Shown: positions 34,075 through 53,236, numbered from the stretch's first letter. The stretch: DNA of 64,000 bases from Yuukianura sp. NJ FZ-2021 (GCA_046563655.1 CM102287.1:3596001-3660000); one strand, 5' to 3'. Numbers and translations: made by a program. Notes: a model not told the origin generated them from the letters alone.

Positions 34075-35043
34075 TGCAATGTAGAGGCATTAGGAATAAT
34101 AATATAAAGTAAAATTGTATTACCAATTCCGTAATAACAAAGAAAAGAGGCTTTGGTTTCACCACAAAGACGTTGTACTTAGTTATTCACAAAGGATTAG
34201 TGATGGTGGATTGTTACGAACCACTAGCACTAATGCTGTTGAATTTATTGAGAACGACTGTTAACGAAAGAGTTCTGGAACGCTTCACAAGTTAAGCTAA
34301 AACAAATTTAGTGATACTAAAATTGGTGTGAAGGATTAGGGATGAGGAGAAGTGATGATGTCTGGTGAGAAGCCAAAATATGACTGAGGAGGTAGAAGTG
34401 GTGGTTACAGATAGTTATTACTTTAATTATGATGAGAATTTCCTTGGGGTATATCCTCAGCCAAGGAAATTAATAAAACTATGGGGGTGTTCATGAGATG
34501 TATGAGTGGTGACCTTGGGAGGCTCAAAACTCCCATAGAACTATGGCTGTAAATAAAAGCTGAATCCCGGATGTGATGTGTTTTACTTTGAAAGTGACCA
34601 CAGCGGAAAACCCCACTCAACCGTGCATTAAGATTGTTTGCTGTTTTTAATTAAGAGTCATAAATCTATCATATCCACTTTGTACCTACTTACAAACATA
34701 ATTACCAGAAGTACATAAGCAAATTGTAACATAATAATAACGTAGAGAAAAAGAAAAATCGATGTAAATTATCTTATTACAATAGTATATAGAGACATCA
34801 AAGTACGTAAATTGCTTAAAAGTAGAGTAATGTTAATCTCCACATTTACTGAATAAAATAACTAAAATATGCAAGAACATTGTCGAAAAGAGCTGTTGTT
34901 GACGTAACCGAAGCAAAGACTTACTACTCAGTGTACCAAACTGTTTGACAAAAACGAAATACCTATGCCAATCTAAAGTAGCGACTTTGCTGCCCTAAGC
35001 TGAATCTAAATGCGATGTGAAACTATCCTGATTCGCATGGATG

Positions 35044-36408
35044 TTATAATTTGTATGTGATGAACTTCCGTGGTTGGGTACCAAGGAATCGGTTTTTGAG
35101 GGTAAGATTTGGTTTATTGGAGGAATCCGTGTTACTGATATGCTCGACTCCACCAATATAAATTGATTCAGTAATACTGTTCAAATTTTGACGTGGTCTA
35201 CGGGACGAAGGATGTTTATATGGGTGATACCCATGTGATTGCAGAAAAGAGAAGTCCGATAACCTGCCATGAGCCTCTGAGTAGTTAATGGCTGATCGAA
35301 CTTGGTCAGGATTAATAGCAATGGATGAGATGCTATTCGACCATACCCCTCCTTTAATCAAGATACCTGTCTGATGAGTGTTGTGTACTTGATCATGAGC
35401 ATGGGAACACAAAGCATTCCCATCTTCTATAAATTTGCCAAGAGTTGTTGTGGTGCAAATAAAATTGCAAGCATATGTCAAATCGGCAGTTTTGAACGCT
35501 GGATTCGTAATCACCGGAAAGGCATAGGAATGGTCGCCAGTGGAATGTTGCAGTGCTGTGCACCATCCCGTTTCGTCTGTGATAGAGTAGCCTAATTTCC
35601 TACCGTCCATGAAGTTTTTCACCACTGGAAAGTATGCTATCAATTCGTGCCAGTCCTCTAGTTGATGTAATGGAAGCCGGAAGGCAATGTGTTTTCTTAT
35701 CTCAAGATCAGAAAAGTATTCCTTGATGTGATCAAACTGTATCCGATAAAAAGCTTTAAATGCTAAGGACGTGCTCTTTACTGTGTTCATTGATGTTTGT
35801 GTCCATCCGAGCTTGGTGTAAAAATACATGCAATCAAGAAATGGATTATACCAAAAAGTATCGCAGTGCATCGAAGCAAACGAACAACCGCAATTGTTCC
35901 TGAGGTCAAACCAAACCTGGCTAACGTCATCGAATTTTTCTGTATCAATTAATGCTGTAAATGCGATATGAGTCGAAGTGATAAAGATAGCAACAACCAC
36001 GTCCTCCCGGTGTTGCATGCCCACGTATGCTATGTTTTGATTGGCAACAACAGTGAGTTGTTCCTGAAGTGTGGATGACAGAGGACAAATACGGTTGGGT
36101 TGAAACGTGGGTTCAGTTTCGGATTTATAAAAATGATTGCGTAACTGTAAGGATGCCAGTAATTCCGGTAGAGCTATGAGTTGCTGGTGCTGGAAAAACC
36201 AACTGTAGAAATCCTTTTCCATGAATTGTTGAAAGTTCAATTGTGTGTTGAGTTTGAATTGTAGCGGGATGTGTTTATCATAGACGTCGGCTGGTGGCAT
36301 GATCGATGGAAATTTAATTGCCGATTCTCGTATTCTCGTGGTTCCTTCTTGCCACATAGGGCTCCCCCATCCGTCCGATATCTCCACGAGTTCAATGGTT
36401 TCTGCCAT
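35044..36408 (-). CDS. Unknown accessory protein A1 (about 454 aa), paralog of A2
   Basis: Long intact ORF sharing LASLQLRNHF, FWYNPF, SLAFKAFY, TGWCT..Q...GDH.YAFPV and ICTTT with 37167-38498. Confidence 0.85.
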   Translation of the reverse strand: MAETIELVEISDGWGSPMWQEGTTRIRESAIKFPSIMPPADVYDKHIPLQFKLNTQLNFQQFMEKDFYSWFFQHQQLIALPELLASLQLRNHFYKSETEPTFQPNRICPLSSTLQEQLTVVANQNIAYVGMQHREDVVVAIFITSTHIAFTALIDTEKFDDVSQVWFDLRNNCGCSFASMHCDTFWYNPFLDCMYFYTKLGWTQTSMNTVKSTSLAFKAFYRIQFDHIKEYFSDLEIRKHIAFRLPLHQLEDWHELIAYFPVVKNFMDGRKLGYSITDETGWCTALQHSTGDHSYAFPVITNPAFKTADLTYACNFICTTTTLGKFIEDGNALCSHAHDQVHNTHQTGILIKGGVWSNSISSIAINPDQVRSAINYSEAHGRLSDFSFLQSHGYHPYKHPSSRRPRQNLNSITESIYIGGVEHISNTDSSNKPNLTLKNRFLGTQPRKFITYKL

Positions 36409-37166
36409 TCTGGAGGAAGCAAAAACAATCAATAGTCGAAAATCGACAATTCCGATGAAAAAATGTTGAAGTAATGATGGAGAAGGTGAATGACATCAAG
36501 AAGGAACAGAAGGATGTAGGAAGGAGCGGAAGTACTCATGTGCCTGGTGCCAATGCTAACCTTGCTGGTTGTATGTTTGAATTTGTGTCCTACGATTTAT
36601 GGAATAATTTATAAGCCAAAGTGTGTATGGATACTACAAGTGGCATGTCGGGAGTTGCGAAACGAGAATGGAAAATTCCCGCTGTGATTCCGAATTTGTG
36701 ACCAAGAGAAAATGGTGATCACAGAGGAAGAGAGCTGCCGTTCATGTTACGAAAAACATGTCAGTCAAAAACCCAAAAAAAATGAATAAAGCGGAGGTGG
36801 AGTCCCAAAAACAAAACAAAATCGTTCCACATTTCTTGAATAGCAACCTTATGGTATTCAGCACACCGGATGCCTAACGGTGTGAGTAACTTAAAGTACA
36901 TAAGTTTATTCAAAAGGTGAATCTAGTTGTCAGAATTATGATGGCAATTTGAAACGAATTTACTCAACATGTGACGTGATAAGTCATAACAGCTAACGTA
37001 AACTATAAAGAAACAATTGGATGAGAAACGCAAGGTCCAAAAATTATATTCACTATCCGATGACCGAAGGCACAATTTGTCTACTTAAAGTTTTGGGTAT
37101 AGTTACAAAGATATCTACAGTAGAACATAAAAGTGACAAACAACGCTCCAGCGATCGATCGAACCG

Positions 37167-38498
37167 TTACTGAAACAAATAGCGACGTTTAATTATAGAT
37201 TTATGATCTCCGCGCCTTTCGGTGCGGAGATTATGACTGGAACCTTCGAAATACAGTGTTTCAATACGTTCATGTAACCGATGTCTAGGTCGTTTAAATA
37301 ACGGTTGAATAGGAAGTTCCCAGCCGTCCTTAGCTAATTTCGACAATTCCATCACCCCACAAGTATAGTCAGACCAAGATTGAATAGCCTGAAGTTGTTC
37401 ATAATTAATTCGTAGCTGACATATGCGATTAAGTGCACGATTGGGGGTAAATATCCCTATGTGATCTAAATTGTGTACGACTCCATGAGCTTGCGAGCAC
37501 CCTGCCCCGTGTTCCTCAATATATTTGCCAAACCGTGTTGTAGTGCAGATCGGATGACAAGTATAGAAGCGATCAGCTGTGGCGAACATAGGATTTGTTG
37601 GAACAGGAAACGCGTATGTGTGATCCCCTGCATGTCCTTGAAGTGGTGTACACCAACCCGTATAATCATCGAATGCTGTAGGTTTGTTTTTGAGTTGCCT
37701 ATACTCGCGAATAAGTGGATGATAAGCTATAATTTCGTGGCAAAACCTCAATTTTTGAACAGGTAAAATGAATGCAAACTGCTTGGTATGTTCGAGGAGA
37801 TAGAAATATTCATAAATGTCTTTAAATTGTTGAGTGTAGAACGCTTTAAATGCTAAACTGTCCGGCCTAACATTTCGCATATTGAGTTGAAGAGGCTGCC
37901 CTCCCTCCTGTTGGGCATACATGGTATCCGTAAATGGGTTATACCAGAAAAAACGAGTAGGTAGTGAAAGAAAAGAGCATCCAACCTGTGCTTTCAGATC
38001 AATCCAAACCTGGTTAACCCGTTCGGGTAGCGCGATACGTGAGCAGCTAACTCTAGCCATCTGATTGTGTGTAATTACAAGAGCTGATTGGTAACCAGTA
38101 AATTTCTTAAAGCCAATGTATAACAAATCTGGATTGTCGATTAGTGATTGGAGTTGGGAGAGTAGAGTAGGTGGAATGGCAATTAGTCTCCCAAGTTTAA
38201 ATGTAGACTGGTTGAGTTCTTCCATAAAGTGATTACGCAGTTGAAGACTCGCCAAAACTTCTCCAAGAACTAGTACGGTCGAATTATGGAGAAACCATGT
38301 GAAAAATTCCATAAGTTTGAGTGGCTGCAGAGTTATCGTAGAGCTCAACCGGACCGTTGTTGGGCATCGTTGGTCGATAGGACGATATCCGACACGTCCA
38401 GCTCCAACGGCTTCTAAGACATCTGTCACATCCCTTGATCGATCCCATTGGTTATGTGGAATGTCAGACGTCCAAAGAACTGAAAACTGTTCCGCCAT
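37167..38498 (-). CDS. Unknown accessory protein A2 (443 aa), paralog of A1
   Basis: Intact ORF, colinear with A1 along most of its length. Confidence 0.85.
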   Translation of the reverse strand: MAEQFSVLWTSDIPHNQWDRSRDVTDVLEAVGAGRVGYRPIDQRCPTTVRLSSTITLQPLKLMEFFTWFLHNSTVLVLGEVLASLQLRNHFMEELNQSTFKLGRLIAIPPTLLSQLQSLIDNPDLLYIGFKKFTGYQSALVITHNQMARVSCSRIALPERVNQVWIDLKAQVGCSFLSLPTRFFWYNPFTDTMYAQQEGGQPLQLNMRNVRPDSLAFKAFYTQQFKDIYEYFYLLEHTKQFAFILPVQKLRFCHEIIAYHPLIREYRQLKNKPTAFDDYTGWCTPLQGHAGDHTYAFPVPTNPMFATADRFYTCHPICTTTRFGKYIEEHGAGCSQAHGVVHNLDHIGIFTPNRALNRICQLRINYEQLQAIQSWSDYTCGVMELSKLAKDGWELPIQPLFKRPRHRLHERIETLYFEGSSHNLRTERRGDHKSIIKRRYLFQ

Positions 38499-39049
38499 GT
38501 CCTATTTGAATTACGATTGCCGTTAATTAAACTCGGGCTGTGTATTAAGTGATATCGTGAGGAAAGTCGGACTGTAGGTTGTCTAACACATTCAAGATGG
38601 AATGAAGGTTTGTTAGGTAGAGAAGGTGAAATGGATGACTCCATCACACCATTAGGTATTAGCATCTAAAGTTTATGATGACCTAAACCTGAACCGATGG
38701 AAAGAGGTTGTCTCCTGGGCGACATAGGAAAAATGTACCCCAATTGGAGGAAATCACAGATGACTGAAACGAGTCGTGTAAGTAATATTTTCGTGAGATA
38801 AGAGACTCGGCTGGATTCACGAGTGATGACTTTATTCCATGCTATTTAAACCTGAGACGCACTAAATTGTGATGTTGAAGCTTGTCACGTTCATTAGACG
38901 TCTGGTGAACGACATGTGAACTGAGGATGAAAACAATCGTTATCCAATCTAATCTCCTCCAGAATCCTCCGACCAACACATAAAAATCGAATTGGAAACT
39001 GACCAGAAATTATATTAGTTGAGAGCAAAAATAAAATATTGTCGCTGGT

Positions 39050-53131: not shown

Positions 53132-53140
53132 ACTTACCTT
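53132..53140 (-). promoter_or_regulatory. Putative major splice donor AAG|GTAAGT
   Basis: Consensus donor about 100 nt downstream of the 5' LTR, just after the PBS. Confidence 0.55.
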
Positions 53141-53222
53141 ACGTTGCTCGAACGTATTAGATGTTGCATAACTGACCTTCGACTTTGACCTGGTGATTAC
53201 GAGAAAGCGAAGTATAACCGTC

Positions 53223-53233
53223 TTTCGGCACCA
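53223..53233 (-). promoter_or_regulatory. Primer-binding site complementary to the tRNA-Phe 3' end
   Basis: TGGTGCCGAAA, 3 nt after the 5' LTR; matches the complement of eukaryotic tRNA-Phe ...TTTCGGCACCA. Confidence 0.82.
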
Positions 53234-53236
53234 TTT

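Follow-up and report, generated by a model that had tools for sequence, protein, structure and literature searches.

A 34-kb env-bearing Ty3/gypsy-type element in Yuukianura sp. with a probable 19-kb cargo that includes antisense genes with predicted introns

Background

For long terminal repeat (LTR) retroelements a length of approximately 10 kb is generally regarded as the limit, and any extra genes as intron-less and sense-oriented. In retrotransposition indicator cassettes the intron of an antisense gene survives reverse transcription, HBZ of human T-cell leukaemia virus type 1 (HTLV-1) is a natural spliced antisense retroviral gene, and the plant element Ogre has a sense intron. Here we describe a Ty3/gypsy-type LTR element present in 64,000 nucleotides of DNA from Yuukianura sp. 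NJ FZ-2021 (GCA_046563655.1 CM102287.1:3596001-3660000; the whole stretch is referred to as the window), with focus on the region between its primer binding site (PBS) and gag. For this region an earlier reading of the sequence alone (the original prediction) had proposed a cargo partitioned by strand, with intron-bearing genes antisense and uninterrupted genes sense.

Several described systems come closest to this element. An eLife 2026 survey reported Ty3/gypsy elements with herpesvirus glycoprotein B (gB)-type ENV across metazoans (PMC13524379); this survey retained only LTR pairs 5-14 kb apart and a 34-kb element would therefore be left out. For the giant planarian gypsy element Burro/GYPSM1 an internal region of up to 25 kb and a total length >30 kb were given in a 2019 review, which also notes that LTR elements occasionally capture open reading frames (ORFs) and places these downstream of pol (PMC6431247). 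In the case of Cer1 of C. elegans, unspliced genomic RNA with splice sites must be exported (PMC10309623). Our search of the literature, the coverage of which was incomplete and consisted mostly of titles and the first parts of abstracts, found no report of intron-bearing antisense genes in LTR elements or of genes residing in a leader intron.

Results

Boundaries and integration of the element

We report that the window harbours one recently inserted and structurally intact Ty3/gypsy-type LTR element, a single insertion on the minus strand at 19464-53718 (34,255 bp). Comparing the window with itself gave one long direct repeat pair, 19464-19945 and 53237-53718, corresponding to two LTRs of 482 bp each that are identical at 481 of 482 positions (one mismatch). 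The LTR termini are TG..CA (the minus-strand read begins with TGTG and finishes with ACA), and a 5-bp target-site duplication (TSD), TACAT, is present at both outer ends of the element. When the element was excised in silico a flanking frame of 1179 codons was restored, the last 33 codons of which had been severed by the insertion; together with the TACAT duplication this fits a single insertion. The interior between the LTRs is 33.3 kb. A PBS-like 16-mer beginning with TGG is positioned 3 nt past the 5' LTR and may resemble the complement of a tRNA-Phe 3' end, and a short G-run precedes the 3' LTR, where a polypurine tract would be expected. The boundary features are:

19459..19463, minus strand, target-site duplication, 3' copy (TACAT)
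19464..19945, minus strand, 3' LTR, 482 bp, TG..CA
53177..53236, minus strand, leader exon with 3-nt spacer, PBS-like 16-mer (53233-53218) and donor AAG/GTCAGT after 53177
53237..53718, minus strand, 5' LTR
53719..53723, minus strand, target-site duplication, 5' copy (TACAT)

The gag, pol and env core

The core genes, identified in the case of gag and pol using Pfam, are:

32485..34074, minus strand, gag, Ty3 capsid-like with CCHC knuckles, ATG at 34074-34072
27608..32620, minus strand, pol with protease, reverse transcriptase (RT), RNase H and integrase in a single frame of 1670 codons
20639..27564, minus strand, env region with four paralogous env-like ORFs and a gB/rhabdovirus-G-like fusion part

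The gag product matches Ty3_capsid (E 3.2e-7), and zf-CCHC at 20.4 bits, just below the cut-off of 20.8. For pol the domains gag-asp_proteas (residues 83-170), RVT_1 (539-693), RT_RNaseH_2 (760-858), Integrase_H2C2 (999-1057) and rve (1075-1163) follow the order of Ty3/gypsy elements. The C-terminal part of the pol frame also has a 48-nt tandem repeat in 2.5 copies with 80% matches (27762-27883).

The four env-like N-terminal ORFs (20639-21736, 22043-23593, 23568-24590 and 25894-27564) show 20-26% pairwise identity. The fusion part is confined to one env ORF (24671-25972), which matches PF24664 Monjiviricetes_fusion (E 6.7e-11, 41.3 bits vs a cut-off of 27), and the match of env to Pfam Glycoprotein_B (E 3.7e-4) is under the cut-off of that family. 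The gB-like env is not one intact frame: the ORFs 25894-27564 and 24671-25972 overlap by 79 nt and are in different frames. The predicted products thus suggest an env bearing a class III fusogen downstream of pol, the feature that defines the gB-type env-carrying Ty3/gypsy elements. No AATAAA occurs in gag-pol-env when read in the sense direction, compared to 12.7 +/- 3.5 expected from block shuffles (an expectation that does not include coding constraint), and the LTR has one.

Genes in the region between the PBS and gag

The original prediction had placed the cargo at 34075-53236, and these coordinates correspond exactly to the 19,162 bases from the 5' LTR/PBS to the gag ATG. The region has seven genes, of which three are sense (A1, A2 and an F-box-like gene) and four antisense (SET, B1, B2 and a zinc-finger gene) relative to the element:

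35044..36408, minus strand, A1, orphan, single ORF, 454 aa
37167..38498, minus strand, A2, single ORF, 443 aa, paralogue of A1
40829..42664, minus strand, weakly F-box/LRR-like gene, single ORF, 611 aa
43909..44781, plus strand, SET-domain gene, exons 43909-43932, 44009-44291 and 44363-44781
47710..48642, plus strand, B1, orphan, single ORF
48814..49698, plus strand, B2, single ORF, paralogue of B1, 171 nt downstream of B1
50305..53026, plus strand, zinc-finger-like gene, nine exons and eight predicted introns

That SET, B1, B2 and the zinc-finger gene are antisense and that two of them have introns, as had been proposed, was confirmed in the sequence, with two predicted introns in SET and eight in the zinc-finger gene (10 in total, all 54-104 nt). 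The sense genes had been described as uninterrupted, which holds for A1, A2, the 611-aa gene and pol, all single frames, but not for the gB-like env that is split in overlapping frames. With respect to the names, F-box was not supported: the 611-aa protein matches the Pfam family F-box-like with E 0.51 (10.6 bits vs a threshold of 24.3) and an LRR family with E 0.9, and had no match among PDB sequences at E <= 1; we keep F-box-like as a label. As regards the name zinc-finger, three finger-like Cys/His spacings are visible in the last exon, and zf-C2H2 scores 18.5 bits, which is below the Pfam cut-off of 25.2.

The two SET introns, 43933-44008 (76 nt) and 44292-44362 (71 nt), are predicted GT-AG introns. 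Unspliced, SET consists of two frames and the second exon is without start codon, whereas an 8-codon first exon with a GTAAGT donor and removal of both introns give an open frame of 241 aa with a start codon. The open-path score is 546 compared to 197 +/- 77 in shuffles. The translation, in which an NHSC motif is visible, matches the SET domain PF00856 (E 1.7e-9, 38.5 bits vs a threshold of 22.4) and 55 SET chains in PDB at E <= 0.01. Specifically, residues 53-85 of exon 2 align with residues 22-54 of 7u5v_A (E 0.28 for this exon alone, where all 18 hits at E <= 10 are SET enzymes) and residues 17-81 of exon 3 with residues 79-140 (E 1.7e-4). The 25 residues between the two matched blocks fit the 24 residues of 7u5v_A only when the intron is removed, which supports the intron. 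By these family criteria the gene would encode a SET-domain lysine methyltransferase. A homologue search with exon 3 at near length gave no match.

For the zinc-finger gene, nine tiling ORF pieces and eight predicted GT-AG introns (50786-50853, 51147-51250, 51398-51463, 51695-51748, 51911-51975, 52059-52120, 52279-52343 and 52640-52711; 54-104 nt) generate an open frame of 721 aa. Path scores were obtained by penalised exon-chaining (the unpenalised version threads almost any sequence and was therefore dropped), and reached 1433 on the plus strand of this region and 649 on the minus strand, with 309 +/- 106 and a maximum of 650 in 60 block-shuffles. Five of the eight introns are identical in the manual model and in a length-maximising script, and the remaining three differ in one boundary. 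The predicted antisense introns are AT-rich, with a GC content of 0.23-0.38 vs 0.45 in exons.

The remaining cargo proteins are two pairs of paralogues, A1/A2 and B1/B2, with 38% identity within each pair. No homologue was found with A2 alone or with a B1+B2 profile, and an A1+A2 profile against 1.84 billion representatives gave a single match (E 2e-5) to a bacterial cadherin-like protein, which we take as spurious. Five cargo proteins had no match in PHROGs, no locus was confirmed with A and B profiles in viral contigs or with the A profile in metagenome contigs, and in the ESM Atlas the best result for A2 was a lead below the threshold (0.88, Baculo_F clusters), with none for B1. The mean predicted local distance difference test (pLDDT) values from AlphaFold2 were 29.2 for A2 and 54.8 for B1, both too poor for fold comparison.

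A leader intron and a compact relative

All four antisense genes are enclosed by a proposed intron on the sense strand of the element:

42675..53176, minus strand, proposed sense-strand leader intron, 10,502 nt, GT at 53176-53175 and AG at 42676-42675

Its donor (AAG/GTCAGT, exon end 53177) lies 57 nt after the PBS, and a second donor (AAG/GTAAGT) 39 nt further, after 53138. The acceptor, a tract with 15 pyrimidines in 15 positions followed by CAG (exon start 42674), is located 10 nt upstream of the F-box-like start codon. Across the whole 33-kb interior the sense strand has 828 YAG sites, of which the 42674 site alone has such a tract, and AG/GTNAGT donors occur only three times (53177, 53138 and 49422).

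DNA contigs (Logan) from three sequencing runs, X1, X2 and X3, were compared with the window (longest contigs 403 kb in X1 and 275 kb in X2). One X2 contig matches up to 42649, continues with 25 other letters and resumes at 53177. The window segment 42650-42674 is also exactly 25 nt, and 12 of the 25 align ungapped to the contig, start codon included. This contig hence lacks 42675-53176; the junction is exact at the donor and defined to ~3 nt at the acceptor. In a second, more diverged contig the F-box-like gene is located ~500 nt from the PBS. Breakpoints placed at random would almost never coincide with such signals. Judged from these alignments, the antisense block behaves like a leader intron and there is a copy that lacks it.

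Acceptor-like YAG sites ending <=10 nt upstream of the ATG are present in five of the seven cargo genes (A1, A2, B1, B2 and the zinc-finger gene), compared to a background of 24% among all 693 ATGs of the cargo (p = 0.012), and that of the F-box-like gene lies 10 nt upstream. For A1 the CAG is 1 nt upstream of the ATG and is preceded by 13 pyrimidines in 15 positions (exon start 36409). These sites could represent 5'-untranslated region introns, leader splicing or trans-splicing.

Copies of the cargo and their divergence

The contigs matching 33600-53500 numbered 465 in X1, 85 in X2 and 320 in X3, with 80-100% identity; those in X1 fall into 145 at >=99%, 103 at 95-99%, 106 at 90-95% and 111 at <90%. 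Other contigs bridge gag to the cargo, diverged copies have the cargo plus its junctions with gag and with the leader/LTR, and cargo stretches of the window are covered with 0-6 differences. Among the joints listed, relatives without B1 (47649 to 48657) were present in all three runs, and further kinds of relatives lack B1 and B2 (47017 to 50098), lack the F-box-like gene and SET (40216 to 46040), or have the zinc-finger gene joined to the LTR interior (51160 to 53292). No joint among the 15 listed matches a predicted antisense intron. The cargo is part of a multi-copy, diverged and evolving family.

Among 40 listed differences between copies (of 2080), 31 are inside coding models, and third codon positions account for 21 of these 31 (p = 9e-5), with 17 of 25 for the sense genes and 4 of 6 for the zinc-finger gene. 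As read from these predicted frames, the distribution shows purifying selection between copies.

All six non-coding segments of the cargo have a positive plus-strand GC skew (+0.11 to +0.26), compared to 0.00 in both host flanks. At third codon positions most genes of both orientations show +0.14 to +0.39, and the values of A2, both SET exons and the last zinc-finger exon are weak or negative. Over the env region the plus-strand skew is +0.23 and over pol only +0.05. The skew of the cargo fits one strand-specific regime over the whole interior, as supporting evidence and not as proof.

Other features of the cargo and the flanks

Within the cargo a module of ~430 nt occurs twice, in direct orientation and with 62% identity including several conserved blocks of 12-20 nt:

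39798..40229, minus strand, ~430-nt repeated module, copy 1, upstream of A2 in the sense direction
43319..43718, minus strand, ~430-nt repeated module, copy 2, between the divergent F-box-like and SET genes

Joints between copies (40216 and 43678) fall close to the ends of the module, which may be a regulatory or recombination module and is a candidate regulatory element.

In the zone of the sense genes, five plus-strand ORFs (69-91 codons) that share one frame are found at 39003-40691, with an open-path score of 474 vs 195 +/- 70 in shuffles and no Pfam hit. The 2.9 kb from SET to B1 (44782-47706) has no significant coding path on either strand, and 46040-47017 is retained in a relative without SET, the F-box-like gene, B1 and B2. 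Eleven short ORFs in gene-free gaps had no Pfam hit, and Rfam gave no match over the window. A 100-nt tRNA-Ile-like gene called by ARAGORN upstream of gag (34195-34294, plus strand) was not backed by Rfam and is probably a false positive.

With regard to the flanks, the ORF interrupted by the element (53719-57158 plus 19360-19458, minus strand) has no Pfam match and could be a host gene or belong to another mobile element. The flanks also have a tyrosine-kinase domain, suggestive of an animal-type host, and an ORF for a Harbinger/PIF-type DDE_Tnp_4 transposase (14454-16055, minus strand). Further flank features are found at 11537-13464 and 58915-60924, a tandem duplication of ~1 kb with 85% identity and a pair of inverted repeats of 319 nt with 94% identity, and a repeat of ~690 nt with 79% identity is present on either side of the element (17066-17739 vs 62868-63527).

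Discussion

We consider it probable, at roughly two chances in three, that the locus is a giant env-bearing Ty3/gypsy-type element of 34,255 bp, where the 19 kb that separate PBS and gag are genuine cargo, copied by the RNA/reverse-transcription cycle, and the antisense part resides in a leader intron. Travel by reverse transcription is supported by the 34 kb enclosed within near-identical LTRs and a 5-bp duplication, by the copies that have the cargo and its junctions, and by the lack of terminal inverted repeats (TIRs) and a TSD around the block. This proposal of the original prediction was therefore well supported, though mainly by evidence other than the strand pattern from which it had been derived. 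The rule that it relied on, i.e. that sense introns are lost through the RNA intermediate and antisense introns persist, agrees with the relative without the leader intron but has to be refined for the element itself: it retains the proposed 10.5-kb sense-strand intron, and thus passage through RNA would not automatically purge sense introns. Internal antisense promoters, which had also been suggested, are logically required for expression of the antisense genes and we infer them on this ground.

Transcription from the 5' LTR would give a ~33-kb sense RNA, the unspliced form of which would be the packaged genome and template for reverse transcription. Expression of the F-box-like gene and of A1, perhaps also of A2, probably proceeds from the LTR transcript in the manner of retroviral accessory genes, with the leader donor spliced to the acceptors at 42674 (F-box-like) and 36409 (A1). 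On the sense RNA the antisense introns would read CT..AC and be invisible to the spliceosome; as a consequence they would be copied faithfully and the antisense genes would keep their 10 introns. Introns on the sense strand could be removed before reverse transcription, and packaging of an RNA already spliced would lead to compact daughters, e.g. the relative without the leader intron. Losing an intron from a sense coding sequence would cost nothing and losing the leader intron would delete four genes, which may account for the uninterrupted sense coding sequences and for the retention of the large intron in some lineages. The antisense genes would use their own plus-strand promoters, for which the ~430-nt module is a candidate. 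An action of the SET methyltransferase, the zinc-finger protein and a possible ubiquitin-ligase adaptor on chromatin or silencing of the host is no more than conjecture.

A more far-reaching version, which we offer tentatively and regard as somewhat doubtful, is that of an "ambisense" giant endogenous retrovirus. This would be an active 34-kb element whose leader intron is a protected compartment for a 10.5-kb intron-bearing antisense cassette, which has spliced sense accessory genes and a host-like chromatin/silencing toolkit, and where splicing before packaging keeps yielding compact lineages without the cassette.

Several points weigh against the cargo reading. All introns, like the splicing of the leader and any expression, are predicted, and counted by gene the association between strand and introns is not significant (2 of 4 antisense vs 0 of 3 sense cargo genes, one-sided p = 6/21). 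The plus-strand ORFs at 39003-40691 may represent a decayed antisense gene, which would blur the strand partition. The A, B and F-box-like proteins lack detectable relatives and accordingly indicate no function for the element. On its sense strand the cargo has 12 AATAAA vs ~13 expected (5 and 7 vs 4.9 and 8.5), i.e. no avoidance, and several of these are close to where the F-box-like gene, A2 and A1 end; the cargo is thus without this mark of selection for read-through, or the sites serve the cargo genes. The three runs are from one sample, possibly the source of the window's own assembly, and the joints and differences considered are 15 (with 28 further) and 40 of 2080, respectively. Finally, the compact relative comes from one contig, in one run of that sample, and since its acceptor side is exact only to ~3 nt and the adjacent 25 nt are diverged (12/25) the compact form may be old or ancestral rather than a fresh spliced derivative.

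This last point leads to the strongest competing explanation, which we judge to be unlikely but to be taken seriously: the compact form is ancestral, and the 10.5-kb block was added to the leader as DNA at a later time, either captured from a host chromosome or gained by recombination, and was tolerated because of splice signals at both ends. In that case the intron pattern would stem from the origin of the genes (genomic DNA in the antisense part, processed copies in the sense part) and not from selective loss. In keeping with such a history the relatives are diverged (12/25 identical beside the joint, and roughly 82-86% identity for the second relative), summed contig depth in X1, which is not copy number, is lowest over SET (45-60 vs 150-600 elsewhere), the zinc-finger end of the block has less GC skew overall, and the cargo does not avoid AATAAA. 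However, the block ends on one of three AG/GTNAGT donors and on the single best acceptor, which a random insertion of DNA would not; it lacks TSD and TIR, and its parts are linked to LTRs in several diverged copies. Moreover, given the target duplication and the near-identical LTRs, the block most likely integrated together with the element at least once.

That the cargo is passive passenger DNA without a role for the element, with decaying ORFs and a pattern that is an accident of one or two captures, is clearly less probable still. The orphan status of A and B, the weak gene-count statistics and the varying cargo content between copies are what one would expect of such DNA, but all seven genes have open frames, A1/A2 and B1/B2 are still open at only 38% identity, third positions take 21 of the 31 differences between copies, and acceptor-like sites are found just upstream of five of seven start codons.

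We regard a nested DNA transposon or a different kind of mobile element as a very improbable origin of the antisense block, even if its genes all have the same direction and the block is missing from some relatives. A nested DNA element with its own TIRs and TSD had been named as the finding that would speak against the original prediction, and none is present at the block ends: there are no terminal inverted or direct repeats and no duplicated flank at 42675/53176, no inverted match came up when the cargo was compared with itself by sensitive BLAST, and the 20 short imperfect inverted pairs that were found are all elsewhere. Pfam identified no transposase, integrase or RT inside the block.

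An assembly chimera, with the cargo misjoined between two LTRs, is hardly credible, since despite the difficulty of assembling long repeats and the single sample behind every DNA run, the target duplication and the restored flanking frame fit a single insertion, the Logan contigs (a separate assembly of the same data source) cover stretches of the cargo with 0-6 differences, and contigs bridge gag to the cargo and, in relatives, the leader to the F-box-like gene.

The cargo reading suggests that a retroelement inserted by its integrase can hold a 33-kb interior, that it can carry complete multi-intron genes when these are antisense, and that a leader intron can house a gene cassette, the loss of which by splicing would create structural variants. 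It also suggests that surveys with an upper limit on the LTR distance have a blind spot, as in the case of PMC13524379 where pairs >14 kb apart were excluded. This would be a route for retroelements to move intact intron-bearing genes within, and perhaps between, genomes. Should the ambisense version be true, the element would have the longest LTR retroelement interior that we found described (supplements to the eLife 2026 survey may list longer ones), and be the first natural LTR element known to us that carries multi-intron genes through reverse transcription.

Compared to known systems, the element would be a natural counterpart of the logic behind laboratory antisense-intron reporters. The indicator cassettes and HBZ represent one engineered marker and a short gene, whereas here we have a natural 10.5-kb cassette with four genes and 10 predicted introns. 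With the Ty3/gypsy elements that carry gB-type ENV it shares gag, a pol of the order protease-RT-RNase H-integrase, an env of the class III, gB-like type downstream of pol, and short LTRs, and it has a PBS-like site where those elements have a tRNA-type PBS (PMC13524379). In the accessible passages of that survey there is no cargo between PBS and gag and there are no antisense genes, which are both present here, and unlike those elements env is multiplied into four paralogous N-terminal modules with the fusion part in a separate overlapping frame. Burro/GYPSM1 likewise belongs to the giant gypsy-like LTR elements and combines host-like regulatory domains with homology to env (PMC6431247). Its extra domains are fused in one sense polyprotein of ~4,900 aa, while the element described here has seven separate genes on both strands upstream of gag, and its interior of 33.3 kb, with LTRs of only 482 bp, is larger than the 25 kb given for Burro in the 2019 review. 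The LTR elements of bdelloid rotifers also gain extra ORFs, with their ORF3 annotated beside gag and pol (PMC5408684); in the accessible text of that paper the word intron does not occur and antisense is used only for small RNAs. As for retroviral leader splicing and Cer1, the genomic RNA would have both donors and acceptors, be packaged unspliced and express downstream genes from spliced forms. In contrast to those leader introns, the 10.5-kb intron proposed here houses four genes on the opposite strand.

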